64,000 nt of DNA from an uncultured Dehalococcoidia bacterium (GCA_913047625.1 CAJWUJ010000003.1:76835-140834), one strand, 5' to 3'. Counted from the stretch's first letter, positions 23,145 to 61,364 are shown. The notes: a model not told the origin generated them from the sequence alone. Translations and numbers: made by a program.

Positions 23145-23869
23145 TGGCATATTTTAAAGGAACAGAAAAAGCCCATTATGTTTCAAGAATGTTTGCGGAA
23201 ATTGCTCCTAAGTATGACCTTCTGAATTCAATTATGACAGGAGGATTGCATCACCGGTGGCGCAACAAAGTGACTGATCTGGTTACAGAAGGCCTAGAAG
23301 GGCCTTCCCTAGATGTTGCCTCAGGAACAGGAGATTTTGCTTTTGCGCTTTCACGTCATGCCAACAGTGGTCAGGTGGTAGGAGTAGATTATGTACGCGA
23401 AATGGTTGATTTAGCGTATGTAAAGTCGACCAGAAAAAAGAATCAGAAAAGTGCGCAAAAATTATCGTTGGCTGTAGCTGATGCACTAAATCTTCCTTTT
23501 AAGTCTGACCAGTTTTCCTGCGTGACTATTGGGTTTGGATTACGGAACTTAGGAAATGTGGAACATGGACTAGCAGAACTGCATAGGGTGATTAAGCCAG
23601 GGGGTAAGTTAGCTGTGCTCGAAATGACTCAAGTCCCAGGGCCCTTAATTTGGAGATGGTTATTCCGGTGGTATTTTCGTAACGTAACCCCTGTGCTGGG
23701 AGCAGTTTTTGCGGGAAACTGGAAAGCATATTCCTATCTTCCTCAATCGGTGGACTGGTTTCCACCTGCTGAAGAGCTGAAAGCGATGATGGCCCATGCT
23801 GGATTTAGGCAGATAACGTACAGATATTTCGGTATGAGGACAGTAGCGTTGCATATAGGAGTAGCATGA
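23144..23869 (+). CDS. ubiE: Demethylmenaquinone/ubiquinone C-methyltransferase (UbiE/MenG)
   Basis: YDLLNSIMTGGLHHRWR and SAM-binding DVASGTGD motifs. The GTG start overlaps the ubiX stop by 1 nt. Confidence 0.9.
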   Translation: MAYFKGTEKAHYVSRMFAEIAPKYDLLNSIMTGGLHHRWRNKVTDLVTEGLEGPSLDVASGTGDFAFALSRHANSGQVVGVDYVREMVDLAYVKSTRKKNQKSAQKLSLAVADALNLPFKSDQFSCVTIGFGLRNLGNVEHGLAELHRVIKPGGKLAVLEMTQVPGPLIWRWLFRWYFRNVTPVLGAVFAGNWKAYSYLPQSVDWFPPAEELKAMMAHAGFRQITYRYFGMRTVALHIGVA

Positions 23870-24165
23870 TTACACACATCGCGCTGGACAAAACCATCGT
23901 TCGGTTCCCTGATTTATACCTGCGAGATAGCCTTATGGGATTGACACACTTTTTCCAAAATGCTACATTCCCGCTTATCTGCTCGTGTAGGCTCTAATCG
24001 ACCCAGCTGGGTTGCGTGAGTTGGCGGGTACGGATAGGATAGCGCGTACATAGGGAGATTATTAACGCTAGGACACCAAGCTTTTGATTGTCCGAACAGT
24101 GTTCTTTAATTTTGCTTTGACCGAAAATAGAGGTCTTTGTTAATTGTAACAGGAGGAGTTTAACC

Positions 24166-26262
24166 ATGGCTGAAAAATACAGATTAGGCGTTGATGTTGG
24201 TGGAACATTTACCGATGTTGTTTTGTTGGAAGACGACGGGACTGCTACACCCAAAAAAGTGTTATCGTCCCCACCTCATTTTAATGTTGCCATTAAAACA
24301 GGCATTGAACAGGCAATGGAAGAGAAGAAACTGTCAGGCAACCAAGTGTCCGAGTACACTCATGGAGCCACCGTCGCCACCAATGCGATCATTACTAGAT
24401 CTGGAGCCAAAACTGGCCTCATAACAACCAAGGGGTTTAGAGACGTCCTAGAGATCAGAAGAATGCGCATGCATAAATTGTATGACATTAACTGGGAAAA
24501 GCCCAAGCCACTGGTGCCTCGACACTTAAGAATGGAAGTTCCTGCCCGAATGAACCCTCAGGGCGGTGAAGAGACTGGCTTGGACGAAAACGCAGCCAAA
24601 GAGGCTATCAAGCGCTTACTGAACGAAGGAATTGAATCGATCGCGGTGTGCTTTTTACATTCCTATGCAAATGGTGCCCATGAAGAAAGAGTTAAAGAAC
24701 TCATTCGAGAGATTGATTCTGATGTGCTGGTGTCATTGTCAAGTGAATTACTGCCTGAAATTAAGGAATACGAACGAACTAGCACTACCGTGATAAATGC
24801 TTATGTTCAACCTGCAGTCAGCCGTTATTTTCTAGCGATGGAAGCTGACTTAAAAGATCTTGGAATGGATATTCCAATAATGGTTATGCAGTCAAATGGT
24901 GGGATGATGCCTTCTACGTCGGCGCGAGAACGACCGATGCATATCATTGAGTCTGGTCCTGCGGCCGGAGTAACTGGTTGTTTCCACTTAGCTAAGAAAT
25001 TAGGCATGGAAGACGTTATGACATTTGACATGGGTGGTACTACGGCAAAGGCTGCATTGATTGAGGAAGGAGAAATATCCAGATCACCAGAGTATGAAGT
25101 TGGTGGTGAAATTAGCATAGGACATCGCCTTATGAAAGGTAGTGGATACTTATTGAGAGTGCCTTCCGTTGATTTGGCGGAAGTGGGAGCAGGAGGAGGA
25201 AGTATTGCCTGGGCTGATGAAGCCGGTGCCTTGAAGGTAGGTCCTCACAGTGCAGGCGCCAGTCCTGGTCCTGCTTGTTACGGTAACGGGGGTGAGGAAC
25301 CCACAATCACTGATGCTAACGTACATATGGGATTAACAAATCCTGATTCACTTGCAGCAGGAACCTTGAAAGTCTATCCTGATCTGGCAGATAAAGCCAT
25401 CAAGGAGAAAGTAGCATCCAGATTGGGTTTGGATATAACTGCAACAGCATGGGGTATCCGAACGGTGGCAAATTCAAGCCTAATCCGAGCCTTACGAGCA
25501 GTTTCAACTGAAAGAGGACGAGATCCCAGAAGATTCACACTTTTTGGGTTTGGAGGAATGGGTCCGGTCCATGCAGTTGATTTGGCTACGGAATTAGGAA
25601 TATCTAAGGTTGTAATACCTCCGCTACCTGGTTTGTTTAGTGCTGTCGGATTATTGTTTGCAGACGTTGAGCATCATCTGATTCAAACTCATTACGCAAA
25701 TACATCTGAACTAGACTATGACCGTATCAACAAAGTCATGAAGGGGCTTGTTGACGAAGCTACAAATGATTTAACAAGAGAAGGTTATACCGGGGCCAGT
25801 CAGGAAATTGTGCTCTCTGCAGATACGCGGTATATGGGGCAGGATTACGCCTTAACTATACCAGTTAGCGGCACGACGTTCACGACTGAACTCATTGAAA
25901 AACTAGTGGAAGATTTCCATCAAGAACACGACAAAACCTATGGATACCGATCTGATAAAGAGGAAGTGCAGATTGTGGCTTTACGAGGTTTAGCACGAGG
26001 AATTTCCGCAACTGAGCGGGTTCCAGCACAGATCAAGCTTAATGCCTGGAAGCCAGATACTGGTGACAGAAAGGCGTATTTTGGCCCGGAACTTGGATGG
26101 ATAGACGTGCCTGTTATTGGTAGAACTGACCTGTCCACGGATGCCCGCCAAGGACCTATGATTATTGAGGAAGACAATTCGTTATCGGTGGTTACCCCAG
26201 GATGGAAGGCATCGCTTGACGATTTATCTAATATCATTTTGGAATCTTCAGATAAAGGATAA
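24166..26262 (+). CDS. Hydantoinase/oxoprolinase A-subunit family protein (HyuA-like)
   Basis: N-terminal YRLGVDVGGTFTDVV ATPase-fold motif, 698 aa, typical HyuA length. AGGAGG lies 9 nt upstream of the start. Confidence 0.85.
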   Translation: MAEKYRLGVDVGGTFTDVVLLEDDGTATPKKVLSSPPHFNVAIKTGIEQAMEEKKLSGNQVSEYTHGATVATNAIITRSGAKTGLITTKGFRDVLEIRRMRMHKLYDINWEKPKPLVPRHLRMEVPARMNPQGGEETGLDENAAKEAIKRLLNEGIESIAVCFLHSYANGAHEERVKELIREIDSDVLVSLSSELLPEIKEYERTSTTVINAYVQPAVSRYFLAMEADLKDLGMDIPIMVMQSNGGMMPSTSARERPMHIIESGPAAGVTGCFHLAKKLGMEDVMTFDMGGTTAKAALIEEGEISRSPEYEVGGEISIGHRLMKGSGYLLRVPSVDLAEVGAGGGSIAWADEAGALKVGPHSAGASPGPACYGNGGEEPTITDANVHMGLTNPDSLAAGTLKVYPDLADKAIKEKVASRLGLDITATAWGIRTVANSSLIRALRAVSTERGRDPRRFTLFGFGGMGPVHAVDLATELGISKVVIPPLPGLFSAVGLLFADVEHHLIQTHYANTSELDYDRINKVMKGLVDEATNDLTREGYTGASQEIVLSADTRYMGQDYALTIPVSGTTFTTELIEKLVEDFHQEHDKTYGYRSDKEEVQIVALRGLARGISATERVPAQIKLNAWKPDTGDRKAYFGPELGWIDVPVIGRTDLSTDARQGPMIIEEDNSLSVVTPGWKASLDDLSNIILESSDKG

Positions 26263-26474
26263 GTTCTATATGAAATAAAAGAAGCACAGGATAGTCACAC
26301 TTTGTTCCGTAAAAGTGTTGCGGTAATGTGCTATTATAGCTATAGATTCTAAGAACGAACCTTGAAGGAATCGATTTGGCAAAGGTCGGTAGTACCTAAG
26401 TTCCTTCAAACGTGCTGCTATTTTGGGTAGCAGTGCTTCAAAAACAAGTACATTATTAGGAGGACTAAACACAA

Positions 26475-27761
26475 ATGTTTAAAAAAAGTAGTCTATTAAT
26501 TGGTATTCTCGCAGCAGGACTGATATCAGTAGGTTGTGCAGGAGAAACTGAGACAATTGTCGTAGAAAAAGAGGTACTAGTTGAAGTACCAGTAGAGAAA
26601 GTGGTTGAAAAACCGGTTGTCGTAGAAAAAGAGGTTGTTAAAGAAGTACCGGTAGAGAAAATTGTTGAAGTAGAGAAAGTAGAAATCAAAGAAGTCATCA
26701 AAGAGGTGATTGTTGAGAAAGAAGTTGAAAAATCAGCAGCTAGTTTCTTAGATGGTGACAAGGTATATAACTTCACAATGTCTGGCCAGCTATCGCCTAC
26801 ATTGAAGCAATGGACAAATTTGGAAGCTCCATGGCTTCTAGGTGATGACTCTAAGATTGTTAAGAACAGTAATGGCAAGGTGAAGGTTAAGCTTAACACC
26901 GCGTCAGAGCTTGGAATTGGTCAGTTTGATGTTTTGAGATTCCTGTCTACAGGTGTTATCGACATTGGTATGGCAGTATTCACAAGCATAGCTGGTGATG
27001 TTCCTGTCGCAGGCGGTATCGACTTGGCTGGAGCTTATCCGGAGCTTGATGGTGTCAAAGCCAAAGCCGGAACAGAAGCATTTATTCCTGAGCTGAATAA
27101 GCAGATGGAAAACAAGCTAGGCATTAAAATTATTGGTCACTTTAACAACCCTGCACAGGTTCCTTACTGTAAGTTCCCAATAACGGGTTCTGCAGATTTG
27201 AAGGACAAGAGGGTTCGAACTTTTGGTTCAACGTTAGGTGACTATGTTGAGCACTTTGGTGGGATCAACGTAACCATAGCCTTCGTAGACGTGTACAGCG
27301 CAATGCAGACTGGTATTGCTGACTGTGCAATTACGGGTACTGGTTCTGGAAACGCCCAGAAATGGTATGAAATAACAGAGTACCTGTATACGCTTCCTGT
27401 GGGCCATGCAATCACTGGTTGGGGAGCAAACCTCGATATGTGGAATAAACAGCCGACCGACGTTCAGGATTTCATGCAGGATACCTTTAACAGCATGACT
27501 GCTGACGGATGGGACCTCGGAATGGCGCTGACTCAGGACGGAATTGACTGTAATACAGGAGTCGCGGCAGGTTGTGAACTAGGAACCCTGGATAGCGATT
27601 CACCAATGACACAGGTCGTTCCTTCAGAGGCTGACTATGATTCTCTCAAGGCAGCTGCTTCGGAAACAGTTCTCCCACGATGGGTAGAGCGGTGCGGCGT
27701 TGATTGTAAAGTGATTTACAATCGTACAATAGCTGAAGTCACAGGGGTTGCTATCCCGTAA
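26475..27761 (+). CDS. TRAP transporter solute-binding lipoprotein (DctP family) with V/E/K-repeat tether
   Basis: Lipobox LISVGC, a roughly 65-aa VEKEV-type repeat linker, then a DctP-like domain (KDKRVRTFGS, VDVYSAMQTGIADC). DctQ and DctM genes follow. Confidence 0.8.
   Translation: MFKKSSLLIGILAAGLISVGCAGETETIVVEKEVLVEVPVEKVVEKPVVVEKEVVKEVPVEKIVEVEKVEIKEVIKEVIVEKEVEKSAASFLDGDKVYNFTMSGQLSPTLKQWTNLEAPWLLGDDSKIVKNSNGKVKVKLNTASELGIGQFDVLRFLSTGVIDIGMAVFTSIAGDVPVAGGIDLAGAYPELDGVKAKAGTEAFIPELNKQMENKLGIKIIGHFNNPAQVPYCKFPITGSADLKDKRVRTFGSTLGDYVEHFGGINVTIAFVDVYSAMQTGIADCAITGTGSGNAQKWYEITEYLYTLPVGHAITGWGANLDMWNKQPTDVQDFMQDTFNSMTADGWDLGMALTQDGIDCNTGVAAGCELGTLDSDSPMTQVVPSEADYDSLKAAASETVLPRWVERCGVDCKVIYNRTIAEVTGVAIP
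26559..26735 (+). repeat. In-frame imperfect tandem repeat (60-bp period, degenerating) encoding a (V/I)EKEV linker
   Basis: GTCGTAGAAAAAGAGGT recurs at 26559 and 26619. GAAGTACC(A/G)GTAGAGAAA recurs at 26584 and 26644. Shorter GAGAAAG/GAAGT units continue to about 26735. Confidence 0.7.
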
Positions 27762-27833
27762 GCTGGCTTTAAAGCTAAGTTGAACTATTAATGAGGGTCT
27801 GCTTTGGGTGGTTCGATACGGGCCACCTAATAG

Positions 27834-27859
27834 CGGATCCTCATAGGTATCTGGATCCG
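27834..27859 (+). other. Intercistronic stem-loop between the TRAP binding-protein and permease genes
   Basis: CGGATCC (27834-27840) and GGATCCG (27853-27859) form a perfect 7-bp stem with a 12-nt loop. No U-tract follows. Confidence 0.4.
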
Positions 27860-27935
27860 TGTAAAAAATGGCTAGGTGTTTGCAGTGCTCGATTAATTAT
27901 GAGCTTAGATCTGACACCTGAAGAGCGAGGTATAG

Positions 27936-28604
27936 ATGAGTTCTATGCAATCTGGAAACAGAAGTGGAGTTATGGGATCTCTTGACTCTGCGGCGGCTGT
28001 GGTCGCTGGCTTTAGAGAGCAGATGGCCAAATCTGCCACCATGATGGCGCGTGTCTCAGGGTGGTTATTTGTAGCAATCTCTCTATTCATAACGTCTGAC
28101 ATTATTACAAGAAAGCTATTCCTATTTTCGTCGAGAGCTACTGACGAATACAGCAACTACGGGTTTGCCTTCGCAACGTCGTGGGCAATGGGTTACGCTC
28201 TGCTAACCAAGGCTCACGTGCGAGTTGATGTACTTCTGGTTAGATTTCCTCCGGCGGTTCAAGGTTATCTGAATACCTTTGCTTTAGTATTGGTCAACTT
28301 TATGATGGCTTATGTGGTTTATTATGCTTGGCAAACAGTCTTTTTCTCCTTCCAAATTGGAGCTCAGGCGCCTACTATCCAGCGGACACCACTCGCGTGG
28401 CCTCAATCTGTGTGGGCTATCGGCCTTACCTTTTTCTGGTTTGTGGCGTTTATAATGCTAGTTGAGACACTGTTGGATTTGGCTAGAGGTAAAGCAAGAG
28501 AATTAGCTCACAAAATTGGGCCACTTTCTGTCCAAGCTGAAATTGACGAAGCTCTGGAAGCTGCTGGTCTTGAAGCGACTACAGCGGAGGAGGCAAAGAA
28601 ATGA
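27936..28604 (+). CDS. TRAP transporter small permease (DctQ family)
   Basis: 4-TM hydrophobic protein. GAGG lies 5 nt upstream, and there is an ATGA overlap with the DctM gene. Confidence 0.8.
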   Translation: MSSMQSGNRSGVMGSLDSAAAVVAGFREQMAKSATMMARVSGWLFVAISLFITSDIITRKLFLFSSRATDEYSNYGFAFATSWAMGYALLTKAHVRVDVLLVRFPPAVQGYLNTFALVLVNFMMAYVVYYAWQTVFFSFQIGAQAPTIQRTPLAWPQSVWAIGLTFFWFVAFIMLVETLLDLARGKARELAHKIGPLSVQAEIDEALEAAGLEATTAEEAKK

Positions 28605-29926
28605 CAGGAGTCTTATTAGGAACTACTTTTAGTATCTTGCTGCTGTTCTTGGGAGCTGCCGTTTATATCGGGGCGACACTTGGCTCTCTGGGGTTAATTC
28701 TTGGATTTATATTTTCCGATCGGCCTTTGTATATGGCGATCGGAGATCTAGCATGGACTCCGAGTACGAGCTTTGTTCTGGTTGCTGTACCTTTGTTTAT
28801 TCTAATGGGTGAAATATTGCTTCGTAGTGGTATTACTGATCGATTATATACATCGTTAGGTGGCTGGCTTAACTTTTTACCCGGTGGGCTGATGCATACT
28901 AATATTGCTTCTTGCTCAGTCTTTGCTGCAGTGTCAGGATCGAGCGTTGCTACTGCTGCTACCATAGGAACTGTTGCCTTACCGGCATTTGAACGAGCTG
29001 GCTATAACGAAAGGCTAGTGCTGGGATCGCTGGCAGCTGGCGGGACCTTGGGTATCCTGATTCCCCCCAGTATCAACATGATCATCTATGGATTGCTCAC
29101 TGATACTTCAATAGGCAGGTTGTTCTTCGGTGGTTTTATACCAGGTTTCATGCTGGCAGGTATTTTCATGCTTTTCATAGCTGCTGCCGCTGGAGTAAAT
29201 CCGGGTGTCGCTCCTAAAGAAGTATTGCCTTCAATGAGGGAAAGAATCAAAGGATTAAGCAATATCCTGCCTATGGTTTTTCTGATTCTTTTGGTTATGG
29301 GTAGTATTTATTTAGGATGGGCCACACCGACGGAAGCAGCTGCCCTTGGTGTCGTTGGCTCTCTTGTTCTGGCAATAGTATTTAGGCGATTGAATTTCAA
29401 GATGCTTTCTGAATCGACAGAGTCGACGGCTCGGACGGGAGCTATGGTAACGTTTATTGTTATCGGTGCTTTTCTGTTCAACTTTTTTATAACTGCATTA
29501 GGGCTTCCAAGGGCTATCACAAGTGCTATAACGGAACTTGGTATACCTCCACTGGCAACCCTTGGCTTGCTTATTATCTTTTACCTTGTTTTGGGAATGT
29601 TTATGGAAACCTTGTCTATCATGGTGACGACCTTACCAGTAACGTTTCCTGTAATACATCACTTGGCAATGGAGAATCCAGAAATAAGAGTCTTTGATCC
29701 TGTTGCCTACGGTATTTTATTTGTCATACTCATTGAGTCTGCTTTGATAACTCCGCCTGTAGGTGTCAACCTGTACGTTATTCAGGGAATCAGAAAGACT
29801 GTTGGGCCTATGACTGATGTGATTGTTGGAGCAGTTCCATTTTTCATATGTATGATTATTATGATGGGAATAATAGTAGCATTTCCCGACTTAGCCTTGT
29901 GGCTGCCGAATATGGTATTTGATTAG
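28601..29926 (+). CDS. TRAP transporter large permease (DctM family)
   Basis: 441-aa polytopic protein with a DctM-like pattern (FILMGEIL, SGSSVATAATIG, PPS..MIIYG). Confidence 0.9.
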   Translation: MTGVLLGTTFSILLLFLGAAVYIGATLGSLGLILGFIFSDRPLYMAIGDLAWTPSTSFVLVAVPLFILMGEILLRSGITDRLYTSLGGWLNFLPGGLMHTNIASCSVFAAVSGSSVATAATIGTVALPAFERAGYNERLVLGSLAAGGTLGILIPPSINMIIYGLLTDTSIGRLFFGGFIPGFMLAGIFMLFIAAAAGVNPGVAPKEVLPSMRERIKGLSNILPMVFLILLVMGSIYLGWATPTEAAALGVVGSLVLAIVFRRLNFKMLSESTESTARTGAMVTFIVIGAFLFNFFITALGLPRAITSAITELGIPPLATLGLLIIFYLVLGMFMETLSIMVTTLPVTFPVIHHLAMENPEIRVFDPVAYGILFVILIESALITPPVGVNLYVIQGIRKTVGPMTDVIVGAVPFFICMIIMMGIIVAFPDLALWLPNMVFD

Positions 29927-30019
29927 TCGAAGGCTGTATTCTATTTATGATGAGCTTTTGACAAAACGGGAAAAATTAGAAGAACAAATAAAGAAAAAAC
30001 AGAGGGAGAACTTCGTAAT

Positions 30020-31354
30020 ATGAGTCAAATTGAGCAAGATTATCTGATTAAGCATGCCAAATCTGCAGAGCTTTACACTAGAGCAAAGGAATGTTTTCCG
30101 AGTGGAGTAACACACGATATTAGGTACCTGAAGCCGTTCCCTATTTTTTCAAGGGAAGCCAAGGGTGGCAGGAAATGGGATGTTGACGGTAATGAATATG
30201 TAGACTTTTTTATGGGTCATGGTGCTCTTCTGCTTGGCCATTCTAATCCTAATGTGGTACAGGCAATTCAAAACCAGGCTGGATTAGCTACTCACTCAGG
30301 AGCTAGCCATGAACTGGAAGTAGAATGGGCTGAGCTTGTTAAACAACTAATACCTGCTGCAGAAAAAGTACGGTTCCATTCATCTGGCACCGAGTCCACA
30401 TTAATGGCACTGCGATTAGCTAGAGGGTACACAGGAAAAAACAAGATAGTAAAATTCCAGTCTCATTTTCACGGTTGGCACGACTATATGGTCAAAGGAA
30501 ATGCCACGCTCACAGGAGTGCCTGAAGGTACATCAGACACTGTGATTGTGCTACCTCCCAACGATATTGATATTGTTGAGAAAACACTAAAGGAAGATAA
30601 AGATATCGCGGCAGTAATTTTAGAGCCCACCGGGGCGAACTTCGGCGTGTTGCCGATTTTTCCTTCTTTCCTCCGTGATCTCCGAGAGTCTACCAAACGG
30701 CACGAGGTCTTGCTTATTTTCGACGAGGTCGTAACTGGTTTTAGGATATCGAAGGGGGGAGCTCAGGAAAAATATGGAGTTACCCCAGATATGACCACAT
30801 TGGCTAAAATACTGGCCGGAGGAATGCCTGGAGGAGCTTCTACAGGTCGCGCGGATATTATGGATATGATATCTCACACCAGCGATGCAGAATGGAACAC
30901 AAAGAGAAGAATAGCCCACCAAGGTACATTCAATGCAAACCCAATGGCTGCTGCCGCTGGAGTGGCTGCACTCAGCCAGATTGCTTCCCAGCCTATTAAT
31001 GAAAAGGCGGATGCAAATGCGAAATTACTCAAGGACGGCCTCAATGATTTATTTGCTCGTATAGAAGTACCAGGATGTGCTTGTGGCGTAGCATCTATCG
31101 TGGAGATAAAATTAGGAATTCCCTGTGTTTGTCCGCACCGAGAAGTTTGCGAGATGCCTCACGAAGGTATTAAGGGACAGATGGGAGCAGCCTTCCAGTC
31201 CAAGTTAAGGCTTGCGTTAATAAATGCAGGTATGGACACTTCACGAGGAACCCTACTGATGGTTTCATCTGCTCACACAAAGAAAGACATCGACGACACT
31301 ATTTTTGCATACGAACGTGCTATTGCTGCGCTTAGAAAAGAGGAGCTTCTCTAA
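30020..31354 (+). CDS. Class-III PLP aminotransferase, glutamate-1-semialdehyde aminomutase-like (paralogue 1)
   Basis: FHGWHD, ILEPTGA and IFDEVVTGFR motifs, PLP-lysine in LAKILAGGMPGGA. Cys-rich C-terminal patch PGCACG...CVCPHREVC. Confidence 0.85.
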   Translation: MSQIEQDYLIKHAKSAELYTRAKECFPSGVTHDIRYLKPFPIFSREAKGGRKWDVDGNEYVDFFMGHGALLLGHSNPNVVQAIQNQAGLATHSGASHELEVEWAELVKQLIPAAEKVRFHSSGTESTLMALRLARGYTGKNKIVKFQSHFHGWHDYMVKGNATLTGVPEGTSDTVIVLPPNDIDIVEKTLKEDKDIAAVILEPTGANFGVLPIFPSFLRDLRESTKRHEVLLIFDEVVTGFRISKGGAQEKYGVTPDMTTLAKILAGGMPGGASTGRADIMDMISHTSDAEWNTKRRIAHQGTFNANPMAAAAGVAALSQIASQPINEKADANAKLLKDGLNDLFARIEVPGCACGVASIVEIKLGIPCVCPHREVCEMPHEGIKGQMGAAFQSKLRLALINAGMDTSRGTLLMVSSAHTKKDIDDTIFAYERAIAALRKEELL

Positions 31355-31404
31355 TTAATTGATCTTGACAGCTGACAAGAACCCGAACTAAGGAGAATGT
31401 GAAT

Positions 31405-32751
31405 ATGACTACTATTAACGAACAGTTTTTACAAGCCCATCCGAAATCGGCTGCATTGCATAAACGTGCTCTCGCGCATTTCCCAAATGGAGTCACTCAT
31501 GACAACAGAAACATGTCGCCACATCCTTTATACGTGACTCACGGTAAGGGATCTCGGAAATGGGATGTTGATGGAAACGAATATATTGACTGGGTTACCG
31601 GGCACGGCTCTTTATTATTGGGCCATTCCAGGCCAGAAGTAGTCAAAGCAGTCCAGGACCAAATGGCAAAAGCATCCCATCCTGGTGCCTCTCATGAGAA
31701 GGAAATTGAATGGGCAGAACTGATTAAAGAATTAATACCTTCTGCCGAGAAGATCCGGTTTCATTCTTCAGGAACTGAAGCAAGTCTCATGGCCTTTAGG
31801 ATGGTACGGGCTTATAGCGGCAAAAGTAAAATTATTAAGTTTCAGGGTCATTTCCACGGTTGGCACGACGGAGCAGCACCAGGCTGGGCCAATACTGTTG
31901 GAATAACTAAAGGTGCTACTTCGGATACTATAGTATTGCCTCCCAATAACATTGATTTGGTAGAAAAAACTATCAAGGAAGACAAGGACGTTGCAGCAGT
32001 TATTCTGGAACCGACTGGGGCTGGGATGGGATTTTTCCCTATTGCTCCCTCCTTCTTGCACCAGCTCAGGAAAGTAACGACAGATAATAACGTTATATTA
32101 ATTTTTGACGAGGTGGTCCAAGGATTTCGAGCATCTCGTAACGGTACTCAAGGACGATACGGAGTGATTCCAGATATGACATTGCTAGCAAAGATTTTGG
32201 CTGGTGGATTGCCCGGGGGAGCGGTTACAGGAAGAGCAGACATCATTGATATGTTGGAATTTAAGGATGCCGAATGGAATAAGACTAGACGGATCACCCA
32301 TCCGGGGACATTTAATGGCAATCCGCTGTCTGCCGCTGCTGGTGTTGCTGCACTATCATTGATTGCTAATGAGCCTATTAATGAGACTTCTGAAAGTACT
32401 GCTAGAAAGCTGAAAAGTGGATTAAGCGAATTACTCACTACGATGGAAATTCCTGGATGTGCGTGTGGGATTGGATCTACAGTTCAACTTCATTTGGGTT
32501 ATGGACATGAACATGCTGAAGAGCAAGGTGATGAAATTTGTACCTTAGATCACGATAAGATTAGAGCTTTTAATGCTACTCCTGTGGCAGGCAGGTTAAA
32601 AATAGCCTTGATCAATGCTGGAGTCGACACGAATAAAGGGGTTAACTTATTAGTTCAGTCTGCACATACTGATGAAGATGTGGCAAAAACTCTTTCCGCA
32701 TACGAACAGGCTTTTAAGGAATTACGAACCGAAAACGTGTTGGAATTTTGA
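31405..32751 (+). CDS. Class-III PLP aminotransferase, GSA-aminomutase-like (paralogue 2)
   Basis: Collinear with paralogue 1 (FHGWHD, ILEPTGA, IFDEVVQGFR, LAKILAGGLPGGA, PGCACG). ATG 31405 (AAGGAG 9 nt upstream) is preferred over GTG 31399. Confidence 0.85.
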   Translation: MTTINEQFLQAHPKSAALHKRALAHFPNGVTHDNRNMSPHPLYVTHGKGSRKWDVDGNEYIDWVTGHGSLLLGHSRPEVVKAVQDQMAKASHPGASHEKEIEWAELIKELIPSAEKIRFHSSGTEASLMAFRMVRAYSGKSKIIKFQGHFHGWHDGAAPGWANTVGITKGATSDTIVLPPNNIDLVEKTIKEDKDVAAVILEPTGAGMGFFPIAPSFLHQLRKVTTDNNVILIFDEVVQGFRASRNGTQGRYGVIPDMTLLAKILAGGLPGGAVTGRADIIDMLEFKDAEWNKTRRITHPGTFNGNPLSAAAGVAALSLIANEPINETSESTARKLKSGLSELLTTMEIPGCACGIGSTVQLHLGYGHEHAEEQGDEICTLDHDKIRAFNATPVAGRLKIALINAGVDTNKGVNLLVQSAHTDEDVAKTLSAYEQAFKELRTENVLEF

Positions 32752-32807
32752 TACGGTCAAAATAGTGCGATCTCCTAGAAGCGCTTAAGTTCCTTGGAGG
32801 AGGGTGT

Positions 32808-34493
32808 ATGTCTCAGCATATGGCTGCTGGTGAAGTAGTTGTTCGCTCGTTAATAGCTGAAGGCGTGAAGCACGTTTTTGGTATAGTGGGATCCACGTTT
32901 CTACCTGTTCTGGACAGTATGTATGACAGGGACGAAATCCAGTATATAAGTGTTCGGCATGAGCAGGCAGCTGGCTTCATGGCTGACGGATTCGCTAGAG
33001 CAACCGGAACACCCGCAGTTTGCTTAGTAACGGGTGGTCCTGGGGCTATGAATTTGCTTAGTGGTTTATGTAGCACCCGAGCAGCTCAGTCTCCCGTTAT
33101 TGCTCTGGCAGGCGTATCGTCCTCGGCTAACACTGATCGAAAAGCATTTCAAGAGTTTGATCTGATCTCTATTTTTAGACCAATGGTGAAAGAGGCGTTG
33201 CAACTAACAAGCCCGATCCTTATTTCTGAAATGATGAGATACGTATTTCGTACTGCTCTGACAGGGAATAAGGGTGCAGTATTCCTAGAAATGCCGAGAG
33301 ATTACCTAGAAGCATCAGTGGAATACGAGCCTTTTCACTCCTCCGTGTCTGAAAAGATACCTTGTGTACTCTATCCGAACCCTCAGGATATTACTCGGGC
33401 CACGTCATTGATTGAAGAAGCAGAAAGACCCTTGATTATTGCCGGAGGAGGAGTTACCGCTGCCAATGCGTCAGAAGATGTAGTGAATCTAGCTGAAATG
33501 TTGAATATTCCAATTGTTACAGCTTACGGAAGAAACGACGCTGTTCCCAATAACAGTAAACATTACGTAGGCCCTCTTGGAAGAGCAGGATCACCTGAAG
33601 CAGGTCAATTATGCTCAGAATCTGATTTAATCTTGGCTATAGGGACGAGATTATGGCACTTCACTACTTTTTATGATGACAGATATTTAAAAAAGAATGT
33701 CAAAATTATTCAAGTCAATACTGATTCTTCCGAAATCGGAAGGCATTACCCAGTTGAGCTCGGCATAACTTCTGATGCTAAAATGACAGTTCAGGCTTTA
33801 TTGACAAGTCTTACCAATCAGTCAGTCACCAAAAATGAAGCGACTTGGGCCCTTAGAACCAAAGAGCTCAGGCAGCAAAGAATGAATAGATTGGAAAAGG
33901 AAGCCTCTCCCGGAACATCTAGTCTGTTGCCGCAACAAGTGTACGCTGAATTGCGCAAATCATTGCCTCCCCAAACTATAGTAACTCTTGATGCTGGGGC
34001 ATGCCCTGCTTTTGCGTATGACAGGTTGCATTTCAATGCTGGCCGAACTTTCTTTTCTCCTTTGGATGCTGGGGTTTTAGGGTTTGCTTTTCCCGAGGCT
34101 ATTGGGGCTAAATTGGGTAGGCCGGAAGCTCCGGTACTTGCTATCCACGGGGATGGAGGATTCCTCTTCAACTCACAAGAACTGGAAACAGCAGTGAGGG
34201 AAAAAATCCCAGTTGTTACACTGGTTATGAACAACGGTTCTTGGGGATCCGAAAAGGCATATCAAAGAAAGGATTACGGTGATAGATTTGTGGGAATTGA
34301 TCTGGTAAATCCTAGGTTTGATGAATATGCAAAATTATTTGGGGCAAACGGCTACTTTATTGATAAGGCCGCGGATATCCCCGAGTGTTTATCTCTAGCG
34401 TTCAAATCGGAACTCCCTACAGTTATCGAAATAAAAGTAGATCCGGATGAATTTCCAGCACCAGTAAATATTTTCAAAGAAAAAGTAAAGTGA
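32808..34493 (+). CDS. Thiamine-diphosphate-dependent enzyme (acetolactate synthase large-subunit / sulfoacetaldehyde acetyltransferase-like fold)
   Basis: N-terminal Pyr domain (GGPGAMN) and C-terminal ThDP motif GDGGFLFNSQELETAVREKIPVVTLVMNNGSWG. 561 aa. Confidence 0.85.
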   Translation: MSQHMAAGEVVVRSLIAEGVKHVFGIVGSTFLPVLDSMYDRDEIQYISVRHEQAAGFMADGFARATGTPAVCLVTGGPGAMNLLSGLCSTRAAQSPVIALAGVSSSANTDRKAFQEFDLISIFRPMVKEALQLTSPILISEMMRYVFRTALTGNKGAVFLEMPRDYLEASVEYEPFHSSVSEKIPCVLYPNPQDITRATSLIEEAERPLIIAGGGVTAANASEDVVNLAEMLNIPIVTAYGRNDAVPNNSKHYVGPLGRAGSPEAGQLCSESDLILAIGTRLWHFTTFYDDRYLKKNVKIIQVNTDSSEIGRHYPVELGITSDAKMTVQALLTSLTNQSVTKNEATWALRTKELRQQRMNRLEKEASPGTSSLLPQQVYAELRKSLPPQTIVTLDAGACPAFAYDRLHFNAGRTFFSPLDAGVLGFAFPEAIGAKLGRPEAPVLAIHGDGGFLFNSQELETAVREKIPVVTLVMNNGSWGSEKAYQRKDYGDRFVGIDLVNPRFDEYAKLFGANGYFIDKAADIPECLSLAFKSELPTVIEIKVDPDEFPAPVNIFKEKVK

Positions 34494-34502
34494 GGACATA
34501 CT

Positions 34503-34694
34503 ATGGCGTTATCGTCTGAAGACAGGGTTAGGGAAGCTGCATCCCTTATAGGTATGCCAATCCCAGAACACGATATAAAAGAAATTGCTGCAAGATTTAC
34601 AGCGTTGATTGAGAGTTTCCGTTCGCTTGATGATCTTGAGTTGCAGCATGAACTTCCATACCATACCGATTTGTCTGAGGCACAACATGAGTAA
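34503..34694 (+). CDS. GatC-like / AtzG-like small subunit candidate (63 aa) coupled to amidase 1
   Basis: GAGGA lies 6 nt upstream. The stop overlaps the amidase ATG (ATGAGTAA). By eye, the helix pattern VREAASLIGMPIPEHDIKEIAARFTALIESFRSLDDL parallels the GatC N-terminal region. Confidence 0.6.
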   Translation: MALSSEDRVREAASLIGMPIPEHDIKEIAARFTALIESFRSLDDLELQHELPYHTDLSEAQHE

Positions 34695-36114
34695 TCTAGA
34701 CCTAAAGACAGCCAGCATTGATACTCTGGTGAAGGCCATGAGAAAACAAGAACTGTCACCAGTTGAACTAGTTAACTGGTACCTTGAGCGTATCGAAAAA
34801 TTGAATCCTGTGCTTAATTCCTATATCACCGTTTGCGCTGATGAAGCCCGGGAGCAGGCTAGGAAAGCAGAAGCATTGTTGGCTAATAAAGCTGAGACAG
34901 GCCCCCTCGTGGGAGTTCCTATTGCTTTAAAGGATCAAATCTTCACTAAGGGAATCAGAACAACGAATGGATCGCTTTACTATAAGGATCACATCCCAAC
35001 TGAAGATGCGACGGTGGTAACCAAGCTCAAGGACGCCGGAGCTATCATTATAGGAAAAGCTAATATGAGCGAGTTTGCCCTGGGAGGAACCCGAAAGTAT
35101 CCGTATGGAACTCCTCGGAACCCATGGGATCTTGATCGGGATCCAGGCACTTCGAGTGCTGGTTCCGGTTCTGCAGTTTCAGCGAGACTGTGTGCAGCGT
35201 CCTTGGGAGAAGACACAGGTGGATCAGTACGAGGTCCTGCCGGGCACTGTGGAGTTGTCGGGATTAGGCCTACCTACGGCAGGATAAGTAGACATGGCTT
35301 TTTTGGGGCTGTTTGGTTTACCGATACAATAGGTCCAATAACAACCTGTGTGGAAGATAATGCCCTAATAGTAAGGACTATATCGGGCAAAGATTCCAAA
35401 GATGTCACGACCAAGCCAATCCCTGTGCCAAATTACACGGAGGGTCTGGGAAAATCAATTAAAGGCCTGCGCATTGGTATCTTAAAAGAATATATGGAGC
35501 ATGAAGGTTTGGATTCTGAAGTCAGGACAGTTGTTGAAGCAGCGACGGAGGTTTTTCGTGAAGCAGGTGCTTCTGTCAAAACTGTTTCCGTCCCGTTTGT
35601 ATCGCGGTCTGGGCCTGTATTTATAGCTTTGGCGGACAGTGAGGCTGCTGCGGCCACTGACCACGTACTGAGGGACAATAGTGCAATTTTAGATTCTGCT
35701 ACCCGTACGCGTTTGCTTGCAGGCTCATTGACCCCATCATATATTTATCATAGGGCTTTGCGGGCGAAAGCGATGCTTACAAATCAATTTCATGCTGCCC
35801 TTAAGGATGTGGATATTTTGATATCCCCTACCCAGCCGACGGCGGCGCCACTGATTGAGACAGGTGAGAAGGTCTTTTCTAGTGCGGAAGATGTGGCTAA
35901 GCGCTTGCACACTCACCGATCCTTCTGTGCTTCTTTTGCCATGGCTGCTTTGCCTGCTATTTCTATACCATGCGGACTCACACCTAATGGATTGCCGGTA
36001 GGATTGCATTTAGCAGGAAGGCCTTTTGAAGAAGAAGTGCTATTTCAGGCTGGATATGCTTATCAAGAAACGACCCAATGGAACAAATCGCTACCTCCAT
36101 TGGCTGTCTCTTGA
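34687..36114 (+). CDS. Amidase-signature enzyme (GatA/AtzE-like), copy 1
   Basis: Catalytic Lys in PIALKD, Ser loop GTSSAGSGS (a degenerate GGSSGGS) and nucleophile motif DTGGSVRGPA. ATG 34687 gives the typical N-terminus; the ORF track start at 34609 is an upstream extension. Confidence 0.9.
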   Translation: MSNLDLKTASIDTLVKAMRKQELSPVELVNWYLERIEKLNPVLNSYITVCADEAREQARKAEALLANKAETGPLVGVPIALKDQIFTKGIRTTNGSLYYKDHIPTEDATVVTKLKDAGAIIIGKANMSEFALGGTRKYPYGTPRNPWDLDRDPGTSSAGSGSAVSARLCAASLGEDTGGSVRGPAGHCGVVGIRPTYGRISRHGFFGAVWFTDTIGPITTCVEDNALIVRTISGKDSKDVTTKPIPVPNYTEGLGKSIKGLRIGILKEYMEHEGLDSEVRTVVEAATEVFREAGASVKTVSVPFVSRSGPVFIALADSEAAAATDHVLRDNSAILDSATRTRLLAGSLTPSYIYHRALRAKAMLTNQFHAALKDVDILISPTQPTAAPLIETGEKVFSSAEDVAKRLHTHRSFCASFAMAALPAISIPCGLTPNGLPVGLHLAGRPFEEEVLFQAGYAYQETTQWNKSLPPLAVS

Positions 36115-36141
36115 AATCAACTGTGTGAAAGGACGGGTAAA

Positions 36142-36357
36142 GTGGAAAAAAGCAATAGAGTCGTTACAAGAGAGGTAATCAAAACTATGGCTTTAGCTAG
36201 AGGTATAAAGCTATCGGATCAGAGGGCAGAAGCCTTGATCCCAGAGCTAACTACGGTAGTAGAGGGATTAGAGGCACTTCGATCCATGTTAGAAGATAGC
36301 AAGTTAGAACCATCTTTGGTATTCCACGTACCTGGGCAGGTTAAACATGTCGGATAG
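36142..36357 (+). CDS. GatC-like / AtzG-like small subunit candidate (71 aa) coupled to amidase 2
   Basis: GTG start with AAAGGA 8 nt upstream and an 11-nt overlap with the amidase 2 start. VIKTMALARGIKLSDQRAEALIPELTTVVEGLEALRSM resembles GatC VRHLATLARIKFSSEEIEKMQQELNSILDPIKML. Confidence 0.6.
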   Translation: MEKSNRVVTREVIKTMALARGIKLSDQRAEALIPELTTVVEGLEALRSMLEDSKLEPSLVFHVPGQVKHVG

Positions 36358-37759
36358 TAATTTAGCCCATAGCACAATCAAGCAATTAGCAGACCTCTAT
36401 CAAAAGCGAAAGGTTTCCCCTGTTGAAGTAGTCGAAGACTTATTGGATCGAATATCTTTGTTGGATAGCAGGTTCAATTACTATATTACAGTGGTTGCAG
36501 ATGAAGCCAGAAAGTCTGCAAAGATAGCTGAATCTGAAATAGTGTCGGGTACTTACAAAGGAGGTTTACATGGTATTCCTCTCTCTTTAAAGGACATTAT
36601 TTGGACTAATGGTGTTTTGACTACCTGTGCTTCTAAGGTAATGGAGAACTACGTTCCAGACTATGACGCTGAGATAGTTTCCAAGTTAAAAGCCAAAGGC
36701 ATGTTTTTATTAGGGAAACTAAACGCCCAAGAATTTGCCATGGGAGCTACAGGGAGTATTACCTATTTTGATATTCCTACAAACCCATGGGACGAGGAAT
36801 GTGTTACAGGGGGTTCAAGTAGTGGATCTGGAGGCTCAATCGCCATTGATACTAGTATAGCGGCTATTGGAACTGATACAGGGGGATCTGTGCGTATCCC
36901 AGCTGCACTGTGCGGAATCTTTGGACACAAACCCACATATGGTTTGGTAAGCAGAAGAGGAATTATGGCTTTGTCATATACCTTGGATCACGCTGGGCCT
37001 ATGACAAAGACGGTAGAAGACGCTGCTATAATGTTGGACGGCATGGCTGGCCATGATCCCCTTGATCGTTCAACAGTCAATGAGCAGTTTTCCAGTTTCA
37101 CGTCGAAACTGGGTTCGGACATAAAGGGTTCCAGGCTAGGAATAATTAAAGAGGTTTTTGAAATGCCGCACCACCCTGAGGTACGAGATTTGTTTGAGAA
37201 GTCAGTAAAGACGTTGGAAGGGTTGGGTTGCAGCGTACAAGAAGTTTCTATTCCCATGTTTCCCCATGCAAGAAAGTTTCATCCTGTAATTTCGATATCA
37301 GAGTCTAGTTTTACCCATCAAAAGACCTATCTAACACATCGTGATCAATATGGAGAAGAGTCCCAGCGCCGTTTAGATCTCGGACTTCTCATAACGCCTA
37401 GTGATTATCTTATGGCTCAGCAGGCAAGAGAACTATTAAAAAGACAAACTGCGTCTGTGTTAGAAACGGTTGATTACTTAGTATTACCTACTGTGCCTAC
37501 ACCCGCACCGAAGATAGCAACTCCGAAGATGCTCTTAGGCGAAAAAGAAGTTAACAGCTGGGGATTGTTGGCTACTTATACGTGCCCGTTCAATGATACT
37601 GGTCATCCTGCGGCATCGGTGCCATGTGGTTTTGACAGTAATGGATTACCCGTAGGTCTTCAAATAGTGGGCAAGTCTTTTCATGATGCAGATGTGCTAG
37701 GCATAGCCCAAGCGTATGAAAGTGCTACGGAATGGAGCTTACATAAACCGGTACTGTAA
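36347..37759 (+). CDS. Amidase-signature enzyme (GatA/AtzE-like), copy 2
   Basis: PLSLKD Lys, GGSSSGSGGS loop and DTGGSVRIPA nucleophile motif. 470 aa. Confidence 0.9.
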   Translation: MSDSNLAHSTIKQLADLYQKRKVSPVEVVEDLLDRISLLDSRFNYYITVVADEARKSAKIAESEIVSGTYKGGLHGIPLSLKDIIWTNGVLTTCASKVMENYVPDYDAEIVSKLKAKGMFLLGKLNAQEFAMGATGSITYFDIPTNPWDEECVTGGSSSGSGGSIAIDTSIAAIGTDTGGSVRIPAALCGIFGHKPTYGLVSRRGIMALSYTLDHAGPMTKTVEDAAIMLDGMAGHDPLDRSTVNEQFSSFTSKLGSDIKGSRLGIIKEVFEMPHHPEVRDLFEKSVKTLEGLGCSVQEVSIPMFPHARKFHPVISISESSFTHQKTYLTHRDQYGEESQRRLDLGLLITPSDYLMAQQARELLKRQTASVLETVDYLVLPTVPTPAPKIATPKMLLGEKEVNSWGLLATYTCPFNDTGHPAASVPCGFDSNGLPVGLQIVGKSFHDADVLGIAQAYESATEWSLHKPVL

Positions 37760-37977
37760 AGCAGTATGCTGAAAACATTAAGTTTTTTCTCAACAAACCT
37801 AAAAACGAGGTATAACGCTGCCAGACTAATGGTTCAGGGATACACATTATCCTATTATCTATTGATGTCCTTTATAAAAATAATGCTAGTTCCTTTGTCC
37901 TGGATTTGCTCAACAAAAAAAGCTTAAACCTGTTGTTAATGCCTTGTAGTAGCAGGCGTTAGTTTTATTTTCCTGAT

Positions 37978-38000
37978 AGTAGGCACAGCATGTGCCTACT
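37978..38000. repeat. 23-bp perfect palindrome AGTAGGCACA-gca-TGTGCCTACT
   Basis: Read directly: a 10-bp perfect inverted repeat with a 3-nt spacer, in the 409-bp gap between amidase 2 and pstS. No U-tract follows on either strand. Confidence 0.6.
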
Positions 38001-38048
38001 TATCAATTAACCCGTGTATCTATCCTTTGCTTCCTTGCCAGTGATTAT

Positions 38049-38112
38049 TTAACAAAACTTTAATCTAAATGCACGGCAACTTAATTCCTTGTTAATAATC
38101 TCTATTTAGAAT
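38049..38112 (+). promoter_or_regulatory. Candidate Pho-box array plus -10 element upstream of pstS
   Basis: TTAACA (38049) and TTAATC (38060) are 11 bp apart. TTAATT (38081) and TTAATA (38092) are 11 bp apart. TAGAAT (38107-38112) follows 9 nt after the last hexamer. Confidence 0.35.
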
Positions 38113-38168
38113 CATACATAGAACAAATCAGAAGGTTAGAAAGTTAATGGAGGGGTCAATACAAAACG

Positions 38169-39146
38169 ATGAACAAAATTTTATTTGGAACTGCAATTTT
38201 AGCTTCATTTGGATTACTTGCATGTAGTTCTTCCGAGGCTGAGACTGTAAAGGAATCCCCATCCTCAGGCGCAACAGTCGTTTCCGAAGTTACCAAAATC
38301 GAAGGATCAATTGAAATTGATGGATCTAGTACAGTTTATCCTGTAACTGAGGCAGTTGCTGAAGAATTTGGAAAACTTTACAAAGATGTAACGGTCACCG
38401 TTGGTTTTTCTGGAACAGGAGGTGGCTTTAAGCGTTTTGCTAAAGGCGAAACCAGTATCTCTGATGCATCTAGGCCCATCAAGGATGAGGAAATTGAGGC
38501 CGCAGCTGAGGCAGGAACTGAATGGATCGAGCTTGCGGTAGGACAAGACGGCCTTTCTGTAATGGTAAGCCCTAAAAATACCTTTATAGAGTGTCTGACT
38601 GTCGAACAGTTAAAGAATCTATGGAAACCAGATAGCACAATCATGACCTGGAAAGATATTGATGCTTCTTGGCCCGACAAAAGAATTAATTTGTATGGAC
38701 CGGGTACAGATTCAGGAACCTTTGATTTCTTTACTGAAGAAATTGTTGGTGAAGTACAATCCAGTAGGTCTGACTATTCCATGAGCGAGGACGACAATTC
38801 ACTAGTTAAAGGAATCAACACTGATCCCAATGCACTAGGATATTTTGGCTACGCTTACTATGATGCCAACCCAGATAAACTAAAACTAGTAGCAATTGAT
38901 GATGGTAATGGTTGCGTGGAACCTTCTGCTGAGACCATTAAATCAGGAGAATATACCCCACTTGCACGGCCATTGTTCATATATGTTAACAGCGACCATT
39001 TAAAAAATAGGCCAGCAGTTGAAGCGTTTGTGAAGTACTTCTTGACTAGTGGACCAGAATTGGTAGCAGAAGTAGGCTATGTGAAAGAATCAAACGAAGT
39101 CTATACCCAGGGTTTGAACCTAGTGGAGGCGACGCTTCTAAAGTGA
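38169..39146 (+). CDS. pstS: Phosphate ABC transporter substrate-binding lipoprotein PstS
   Basis: Lipobox LLACSS, plus DGSSTVYP and SGTGGGFKRF motifs. pstCAB follows. Confidence 0.9.
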   Translation: MNKILFGTAILASFGLLACSSSEAETVKESPSSGATVVSEVTKIEGSIEIDGSSTVYPVTEAVAEEFGKLYKDVTVTVGFSGTGGGFKRFAKGETSISDASRPIKDEEIEAAAEAGTEWIELAVGQDGLSVMVSPKNTFIECLTVEQLKNLWKPDSTIMTWKDIDASWPDKRINLYGPGTDSGTFDFFTEEIVGEVQSSRSDYSMSEDDNSLVKGINTDPNALGYFGYAYYDANPDKLKLVAIDDGNGCVEPSAETIKSGEYTPLARPLFIYVNSDHLKNRPAVEAFVKYFLTSGPELVAEVGYVKESNEVYTQGLNLVEATLLK

Positions 39147-61322: not shown

Positions 61323-61364
61323 CAAGAGATCAATAAAGCAGTTATATGATTGAAAGGGAATAAA

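Follow-up and report, generated by a model that had tools for sequence, protein, structure and literature searches.

In B. pertussis, the TRAP (for tripartite ATP-independent periplasmic) receptors DctP6 and DctP7 bind 5-oxoproline and are encoded near a HyuAB-type 5-oxoprolinase (PMC13274462), and in SAR11 a nanomolar L-pyroglutamate receptor adjoins 5-oxoprolinase genes (PMC11485210). The GatA-like enzyme AtzE, which acts on a ureido group, has as its obligate partner the non-catalytic, GatC-derived protein AtzG, and such pairs occur in nitrogen-catabolic clusters (PMC6219798); another GatA-like enzyme, AguY, hydrolyzes an N-carbamoyl group (PMC12283126). Here we describe a cluster of eleven plus-strand genes from an uncultured marine Dehalococcoidia (SAR202-type) bacterium, located at positions 24166-37759 of a 64,000-nucleotide stretch of its genome (CAJWUJ010000003.1:76835-140834; hereafter, the window). 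Each part of this cluster has known relatives, namely TRAP uptake with a HyuAB oxoprolinase, the AtzG/AtzE architecture, D-phenylglycine aminotransferase (D-PhgAT), and thiamine-diphosphate (ThDP) enzymes resembling acetolactate synthase (ALS). No described pathway matches the full gene set, however: the families are familiar but their combination is undescribed, and the same holds for the two GatC/GatA-like pairs in tandem and for the lack of HyuB in both species that carry the cluster. We consider the chances somewhat better than even that the cluster imports a carboxylated cyclic amide (pyroglutamate-, lactam-, or hydantoin-type) and strips its nitrogen. SAR202-type Chloroflexota are believed to feed on dissolved organic matter of the ocean that resists degradation, and to our knowledge almost no expanded SAR202 enzyme family has a known substrate; the cluster is a compact, testable entry point to these families. 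Our search of the SAR202 literature for work on hydantoinase or oxoprolinase found nothing relevant.

The cluster begins with hyuA (24166-26262), whose 698-aa product carries Hydant_A_N, Hydantoinase_A, and Hydant_A_C domains (Pfam). It is followed by a set of TRAP genes, i.e., dctP (26475-27761), encoding the solute-binding lipoprotein (Pfam DctP), dctQ (27936-28604), encoding the small membrane subunit (Pfam DctQ) and overlapping the start of dctM by 4 nt, and dctM itself (28601-29926), encoding the large membrane subunit (Pfam DctM; TIGR00786, 318 bits vs a cut-off of 268). Next come two tandem paralogues encoding class-III pyridoxal-phosphate (PLP) aminotransferases (Aminotran_3): AT1 (30020-31354), which is D-PhgAT-like, and AT2 (31399-32751), for which ATG 31405 is a possible alternative start. 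A gene for a ThDP enzyme of the ALS/sulfoacetaldehyde acetyltransferase (Xsc)-like group, with three TPP domains in Pfam, lies at 32808-34493. The remainder consists of two pairs, in each of which a small open reading frame (ORF) precedes an amidase gene. The first, sm1 (34503-34694), encodes a 63-aa GatC/AtzG-like small subunit, and its stop overlaps the start of Ami1 (34687-36114), a GatA-like amidase-signature enzyme (Pfam Amidase, 389 bits). The second, sm2 (36142-36357), encodes a 71-aa GatC-like small subunit and overlaps by 11 nt the start of Ami2 (36347-37759), a second GatA-like amidase-signature enzyme (Pfam Amidase, 391 bits). The true start of Ami1 is ATG 34687 (the TTG at 34609 given by the ORF lister is an artefact), and that of sm2 is GTG 36142. 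The component calls of the first-pass annotation of this DNA (HyuA, TRAP, aminotransferase, ThDP, and amidase) were all verified by Pfam/NCBIfam.

By architecture, selection, and co-conservation, the eleven genes form an operon-like unit. They are co-directional and occupy, as had been described earlier, the interval between the quinone genes (ubiD/ubiA/ubiX/ubiE) and the pst operon (pstS/pstC/pstA/pstB). Intergenic distances from hyuA to Ami2 are 212, 174, -4, 93, 44, 56, 9, -8, 27, and -11 nt, which agrees with the short gaps and overlaps noted in the first-pass annotation, and a GGAGG-like (Shine-Dalgarno-like) ribosome-binding site stands before all eleven genes. Family searches of the cluster proteins found no regulator or mobility gene or domain, again as annotated, and the G+C content of the cluster equals that of its flanks. 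The flat G+C and the absence of mobility genes rule out a foreign genomic island; the annotated "catabolic island" is thus a gene cluster, and "island" in the sense of foreign DNA does not apply because the G+C matches the flanks. In relatives, unrelated genes come after the ubi block, which pst never adjoins, so the history of the insertion is not readable there.

We compared the cluster with strain contigs of the same population (L033, L055, and L092-L094; 96-99% nucleotide identity) and found purifying selection, with ratios of nonsynonymous to synonymous substitution rates (dN/dS) of 0.007-0.12 for the large genes. The lowest values belong to AT1 (0.007) and AT2 (0.008), followed by the ThDP enzyme (0.05-0.065), Ami1 (0.056), and Ami2 (0.055), whereas sm1 and sm2, in which there were few changes, gave 0.15-0.26. 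In addition, relatives of DctP led to a second species at ~74% nucleotide identity, represented by one 29.6-kb metagenome contig only (L091; ERZ1643211:k127_5646430), whose gene order (ubiD-A-X-E, HyuA, DctPQM, AT, AT, ThDP, sm, Ami, sm, Ami) matches that of the window. Amino-acid identities to the products in L091 are 89% for HyuA, 77%, 80%, and 88% for DctP, DctQ, and DctM, 91% and 90% for AT1 and AT2, 77% for the ThDP enzyme, and 78%, 79%, 68%, and 84% for sm1, Ami1, sm2, and Ami2, i.e., the cluster genes are conserved as well as the housekeeping ubi genes (75-88%). The gene-neighborhood comparison proposed with the first-pass annotation was therefore positive in that the whole set is co-conserved in L091, but not at family-level divergence: the cluster is confined to a narrow marine Dehalococcoidia lineage. 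Homologues of the ThDP enzyme (34-55% identity) have cluster neighbors in 0 of 12 same-order loci and 0 of 21 metagenome contigs, those of AT1 (47-57% identity) in 0 of 8 GTDB genomes, and among 400 genomes from 145 genera of the order a close ThDP orthologue was found in this genome only.

The transporter is the best clue to function, and it is independent of the mix of families in the cluster. The DctP sequence reads as a lipobox (...SVGC) followed by a V/E/K-rich repeat linker of ~65 residues. Its Arg248 does not vary among 38 homologues; in alignment, it corresponds to the Arg of the 4N4U motif K-L-R-V, and it is probably the canonical TRAP-receptor carboxylate ligand; together with the joint presence of dctP, dctQ, and dctM, this conserved Arg places the system among the TRAP transporters. 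The AlphaFold (AF2) model of DctP has a predicted local distance difference test (pLDDT) score of >90 over residues 90-428, and its top match in Foldseek is 2PFY, i.e., DctP7 with bound pyroglutamate (template-modeling score, 0.89), with the marine pyroglutamate-specific TRAP receptor 6WGM at rank 4.

A linkage of TRAP genes to HyuA/HyuB extends across phyla. In five of seven non-redundant loci, proteobacterial homologues of DctP (39-46% identity) adjoin HyuA and HyuB, split or fused, and these loci often add a D-Glu-cyclase-like gene, a DAO-family oxidase, a class-III aminotransferase, or an Asp/Glu/hydantoin-racemase-like gene. The HyuAs of these loci are 48-50% identical to the cluster HyuA and belong to the same subfamily, and their HyuBs are 42-48% identical to a clade of orphan HyuBs that is expanded in the Dehalococcoidia genome. 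The 5-oxoproline uptake system of B. pertussis (DctP6/DctP7; 2PFZ/2PFY) likewise has a DctP receptor and DctQM beside an ATP-dependent HyuA-family lactamase. Compared with it, the cluster has a lipoprotein receptor with a long linker, a HyuA that stands alone, and seven further enzyme genes not needed for 5-oxoproline, and its ligand is a predicted one only.

HyuA itself is, by its domains (Pfam E-values of 2e-51, 3e-94, and 2.3e-07 for Hydant_A_N, Hydantoinase_A, and Hydant_A_C) and by the ASKHA nucleotide motifs DVGGTFTD and DMGGTT read in its sequence, predicted to be the alpha (ATP-binding, ASKHA-type) subunit of the ATP-dependent hydantoinase/oxoprolinase/lactamase family. Its best solved relatives are N-methylhydantoinase (7HK5) and then the caprolactamase alpha subunit (6YRA), and its best NCBIfam model is the CapA equivalog NF050156, at 552 bits and thus below the cut-off of 1000. 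Outside the cluster, the genome has about 28 full-length HyuB genes (e.g., on contigs C7, C5, C2, C1, and C31); ~20 of them form one clade, are 42-49% mutually identical, and mostly have no HyuA nearby. HyuAs of this kind pair with HyuBs of this expanded orphan clade, and we infer that the cluster HyuA is paired in trans with a HyuB from another locus. In genome G013 (locus L080), a HyuA gene and a HyuB gene lie side by side; their orthologues in the present genome (G000), at C15:18029-20038 and C3:10750-12324, respectively, are unlinked, so alpha and beta genes do separate in this lineage. We tried to name the HyuB partner by orthology and rejected this route: HyuA is equidistant (~51%) from its own paralogues and from relatives, and the partner is therefore not assignable in this way. 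Candidate HyuBs include those at C1:75130-76878, C1:68668-70410, and C31:4462-6207. A far bolder proposal, to which we give little credence, is that HyuA dispenses with a classical HyuB and uses the GatC/GatA-like amidase pairs of its own operon as hydrolytic partners; if true, HyuA and an amidase pair would constitute a new ATP-coupled amide-bond hydrolase composed of an ASKHA activator and an amidase-signature hydrolase. In a milder version of this improbable proposal, a few HyuAs would serve as a shared ATPase hub for the ~20 interchangeable HyuB specificity subunits.

The Lys-Ser-Ser catalytic motifs are intact in both amidases, which appear from their scores to be closer to GatA than to AtzE. 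Among their relatives in the Protein Data Bank (PDB), GatA scores 287 bits with Ami1 and 286 bits with Ami2, as compared with 179-188 bits for AtzE (6C62). Neither enzyme passes the GatA model TIGR00132 (344 and 383 bits for Ami1 and Ami2, respectively; cut-off, 481) or the AtzE models TIGR02715 (291 and 272 bits; cut-off, 426) and NF006631 (302 and 287 bits; cut-off, 461). A GatCAB tRNA-dependent amidotransferase was considered and rejected, given the missed GatA cut-off and the lack of a GatB in the cluster. The window has its genuine gatC-gatA pair in another place, at about 61350-63136.

The small ORFs upstream of the amidases are conserved, sm1 in L033, L055, and L091, and sm2 as a called 71-aa gene in L091. 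The Pfam AtzG-like match of sm1 is weak (E = 0.048). Similar ORFs precede two more amidases in the genome, as well as amidases in three other loci, and an alignment of seven (sm1, sm2, and five other amidase-linked small ORFs) yielded a family profile whose hhalign match to the N-terminal half of GatC from this genome has a probability of 81% (E 1.2e-5), in accordance with the earlier description of two heteromeric-type amidases. Thus, the sm/Ami pairs probably have an AtzG/AtzE-like heteromeric architecture, in which a small ORF is translationally coupled to a GatA-derived amidase. The 1-carboxybiuret hydrolase AtzG-AtzE of Pseudomonas sp. ADP (6C62) likewise joins a GatC-derived ORF to a GatA-derived amidase in a nitrogen-catabolic context. 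In contrast to the atzG-atzE-atzH clusters, the present one has two tandem pairs and no AtzH homologue, and it belongs to Chloroflexota, not Proteobacteria.

AT1 and AT2 are 58% identical and form a sister pair of paralogues in the tree (98/98 support), within a HemL-like clade that is found in most families of the order. Both score below the cut-off of 527 of the HemL model TIGR00713 (325 and 307 bits, respectively), and in the PDB both have as their best relative the D-PhgAT structure 2CY8, which outscores HemL (298 vs 252 bits for AT1 and 260 vs 224 bits for AT2). Both align with 2CY8 from end to end at ~40% identity, and in AT1 Lys273, Arg35, and Arg409 fall at the positions of the PLP Lys, Arg34, and Arg407, the two arginines being what we take to be the substrate-carboxylate arginines of D-PhgAT. 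AT2 has the PLP Lys and a Lys instead of Arg at the Arg409 position; HemL is without that arginine. It appears, therefore, that AT1 and AT2 resemble D-PhgAT more than HemL and are of the alpha-amino-acid type, in which case they would supply a 2-oxo acid to the ThDP enzyme. A D-PhgAT-like label thus fits better than the "GSA-like" one of the first-pass annotation.

Two further observations concern HemL-like proteins in general. None of the seven HemL-like paralogues tested in G000 reaches the HemL cut-off, and the canonical glutamate-1-semialdehyde aminomutase may be lacking there. In six relatives (L036, L037, L038, L044, L051, and L053), an AT1-like gene is divergently paired with a gene of ~390 aa that, read by eye and without a family search, looks like a threonine-synthase-like PLP enzyme with an N-terminal zinc ribbon. 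The aminotransferase is single-copy in these relatives, and the two genes form a conserved two-gene unit.

The ThDP enzyme has the catalytic Glu52 and the GDG...NN motif. It falls below the cut-offs of PRK08199 (413 bits; cut-off, 539), the Xsc model TIGR03457 (394 bits; cut-off, 676), and the ALS model TIGR00118 (385 bits; cut-off, 538), and scores 409 bits on a second Xsc model, PRK07525, so that unnamed, Xsc, and ALS models score much alike. Among solved structures, BbmA (8X3X) comes closest to it, at 281 bits, as compared with 162 bits for benzoylformate decarboxylase. The placement of the ThDP gene immediately downstream of the aminotransferases recalls the D-PhgAT of Pseudomonas stutzeri ST-201 (2CY8) feeding a ThDP 2-oxo-acid decarboxylase as in the mandelate pathway; here, however, the ThDP enzyme is ALS-like and not benzoylformate-decarboxylase-like, the aminotransferase identity is ~40%, and AT2 has a Lys at the second arginine.

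Based on family membership and gene context, we propose the following pathway. DctP would bind a carboxylated lactam or hydantoin via Arg248, and DctQM would import it. HyuA would then provide ATP-dependent activation, and a HyuB from elsewhere would hydrolyze the activated compound, so that the ring is opened. With a GatC-like mini-subunit holding each of them, on the model of AtzG and AtzE, the two GatA-like amidases would remove carbamoyl or amide groups and release ammonia. Subsequently, the D-PhgAT-like AT1 and AT2 would turn an alpha-amino acid, possibly a D-configured or non-proteinogenic one, into a 2-oxo acid, which the ALS/Xsc-like ThDP enzyme would decarboxylate or cleave. From the same evidence we infer the substrate class, the order of the steps, the role of HyuB in trans, and the action of the left and right halves of the cluster on the same molecule. 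The first-pass annotation had suggested a comparable logic of uptake, ring opening or deamidation, transamination, and a ThDP step, which now has comparative support in the co-conservation in L091, in the DctP-HyuAB linkage in 5/7 loci, and in the D-PhgAT type of the aminotransferases. Its view that no single known pathway fits also stands, and by NCBIfam cut-offs no gene falls in a characterized equivalog. As for the analogies to Xsc and AtzE that it drew, the likeness in gene order and architecture remains, but the family cut-offs are missed.

Several observations weigh against this pathway. In the Foldseek search, sialic-acid and dicarboxylate receptors nearly equal 2PFY, which makes the ranking non-discriminating, and the sequence similarity of DctP to 2PFY amounts to just 43 bits. 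HyuB is absent from the cluster in both species (no PF02538 match in the window or L091), and the ring-opening step consequently needs a partner from elsewhere. No aldehyde dehydrogenase or other gene in the cluster would process the product of the ThDP step. Among the loci examined, the AT-AT-ThDP-amidase half never occurs with the TRAP/Hyu module outside this lineage. Furthermore, a survey of 40 same-order genomes found the ThDP, aminotransferase, and amidase families co-localized in pairs at rates equal or close to those of chance: ThDP-amidase pairs within 12 kb were observed 9 times (4.1 expected), ThDP-AT pairs twice (2.2 expected), and AT-amidase pairs once (1.5 expected), with AT-AT tandems as the sole enriched pair (4 observed vs 0.3 expected). 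The genome (1.55 Mb, ~91% complete) contains ~28 HyuBs, 9 HyuAs, 11 amidases, ~10 ThDP enzymes, and 11 class-III aminotransferases, so that 79 of its ~1414 ORFs (5.6%) belong to the enzyme families of the cluster, and a mixed cluster is for this reason less improbable here than elsewhere.

Some of these points lend weight to a reading that we hold to be less probable though still serious, in which two or three independent modules with different substrates, i.e., lactam uptake and opening (hyuA-dctPQM) and an amino-acid/amide module (AT-AT-ThDP and the two sm/Ami pairs), are packed onto a shared transcript, the genome being streamlined and rich in paralogues. In other phyla, the TRAP-Hyu(-AT) link alone is seen again, never with the ThDP enzyme and amidases, and the near-chance co-localization just described also counts for this reading. 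The genome also shuffles these families into many clusters (e.g., on contigs C4, C31, C1, and C5), and the 212- and 174-nt gaps around dctP contain structured RNA. On the other hand, the complete 11-gene order is held in a species at ~74% nucleotide identity, the gap between dctM and AT1 is just 93 nt and has no conserved promoter, and a class-III aminotransferase directly follows DctQM in one proteobacterial HyuAB locus too.

Three known or conceivable types of metabolism would account for part of the gene set. Nylon-oligomer hydrolase NylA is an amidase-signature enzyme, and together with CapA as the best NCBIfam model for HyuA, 6YRA as its second-best solved relative, and the class-III type of the aminotransferases, this speaks for an omega-amino-acid pathway like those for caprolactam or nylon oligomers, in which an ATP-dependent lactamase would cooperate with omega-aminotransferases and with amidases that act on linear or cyclic oligoamides. 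Caprolactam catabolism in Pseudomonas jessenii (CapAB plus a class-III aminotransferase) likewise sets class-III aminotransferases after a HyuA-type lactamase subunit. Yet the CapA score of 552 bits is far under the cut-off, there is no adjoining CapB, and the aminotransferases are nearest to D-PhgAT, an alpha-amino-acid enzyme, and not to omega-transaminases. TRAP systems require a carboxylate, which caprolactam does not have, and the TRAP importer, ThDP enzyme, and amidases are additions relative to P. jessenii, with the ThDP enzyme left without a role and the open ocean as the setting; we therefore regard such a pathway as improbable. Dissimilation of taurine or another aminosulfonate, by TRAP import, a class-III aminotransferase, and Xsc-like ThDP desulfonation, seems to us the least probable of all. 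The tauKLM-tpa-xsc gene order of taurine dissimilation is established, the TRAP-AT-ThDP order of the cluster parallels it (TauKLM, Tpa, and Xsc being a TRAP importer, a class-III aminotransferase, and an ALS-like ThDP enzyme), and Xsc models (PRK07525 and TIGR03457) rank among the three best-scoring NCBIfam models for the ThDP enzyme. But the Xsc equivalog cut-off of 676 is missed and ALS-type models score equally, family searches found no phosphotransacetylase (pta), sulfite exporter, or sulfite dehydrogenase gene in the cluster, the aminotransferases are of the HemL/D-PhgAT and not the Tpa subfamily, and HyuA and two amidases would be left unaccounted for.

A biosynthetic role would turn the scheme around: the GatC/GatA-like pairs would be ammonia-donating glutaminases, and HyuA would act as ATP-dependent activator when an imported precursor is amidated, or else an acyloin-type metabolite would be made via the BbmA-like ThDP enzyme. 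The amidases are indeed nearer to GatA than to any catabolic amidase, and BbmA, by its name alone, is not a classical catabolic enzyme. We nevertheless think this quite unlikely, since an importer stands at the head of the cluster, which has no GatB-like or synthetase partner, the 1.55-Mb genome is that of a streamlined heterotroph rich in catabolic paralogues, and the AtzE-type precedents of GatA-like enzymes are hydrolytic (PMC6219798).

If the cluster does import and denitrogenate a cyclic amide, the ligand of DctP would name a class of marine organic nitrogen, i.e., cyclic amides, possibly derived from D-amino acids, and would assign GatC/GatA-like amidase pairs a first role beyond the cyanuric-acid pathway. 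The function of the cluster would also help explain the excess of HyuB over HyuA in these genomes. If, instead, it is a mere juxtaposition of modules, it would be an ordinary piece of a paralogue-rich catabolic genome.

The regulatory signals are consistent with a single unit. A consensus scan found a promoter-like block upstream of hyuA (23936-23985, plus strand), with TTGACA, a 17-nt spacer, TACATT, and a TG extension at 23941-23969. This is the sole promoter-like site on the plus strand upstream of the first gene, and it is invariant among the window, a strain contig, and the second species, whereas the remaining spacer has diverged. The dctM-AT1 spacer is not conserved in the second species, and there is accordingly no sign of an internal promoter between these genes. 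A terminator-like hairpin after Ami2 (37929-37956, plus strand) was found by consensus scan only and lies in a strain-variable spacer.

Two elements flank dctP. Its 212-nt leader (26263-26474) contains blocks common to the two species (GTGCTATGAT.A.AGCTA and TGAAGG...AGGTCGGT...), which may be a regulatory RNA element. Just after its stop, a long hairpin (27791-27843, plus strand) with a stem of ~25 bp and no U tract has a folding energy, computed over the 186-nt intergenic region, of -66.7 kcal/mol (z = -4.6). It is unique in the genome, has an altered-arm counterpart at the equivalent place in L091, and is likely an mRNA-stabilizing or attenuating element; given this hairpin and its counterpart, a 64-aa ORF at 27791-27985 is probably spurious. 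A search of positions 23800-38200 against Rfam gave no match to a riboswitch or other known RNA.

Related gene families form other arrangements in the same genome. A second cluster on the TRAP/Hyu/aminotransferase theme, on contig C4 (28737-45068), contains genes for a beta-hydroxyacid dehydrogenase, an Amdase/hydantoin-racemase-like protein, HyuA, HyuB, DctQ, DctM, an aldo-keto reductase, DctP, a HemL-like aminotransferase, an HpcH aldolase, and two near-identical tandem aminotransferases, and thus three HemL-like aminotransferases in all. The order amidase-ThDP enzyme-HyuB-HyuB on the short contig C31 (25-6207) is a further permutation of the cluster families. On contig C1 (73609-76878, minus strand), a DctP paralogue with 73% identity lies directly behind an orphan HyuB; it comes without its own DctQM and may therefore use in common with the window's transporter the membrane subunits encoded there. 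No flanking DNA is shared between this paralogue and the locus described here.

The end of the cluster differs among strains. In L055, a strain variant at 96% nucleotide identity, a 770-bp insertion (L055:4105-4874) directly follows the Ami2 stop, and it is lacking in the window (site 37762-37786), which marks the Ami2-pstS spacer as a strain-variable spot. The 294-aa product of the insertion has motifs that, judged by eye and without a family search, resemble those of glycosyltransferase family 2.

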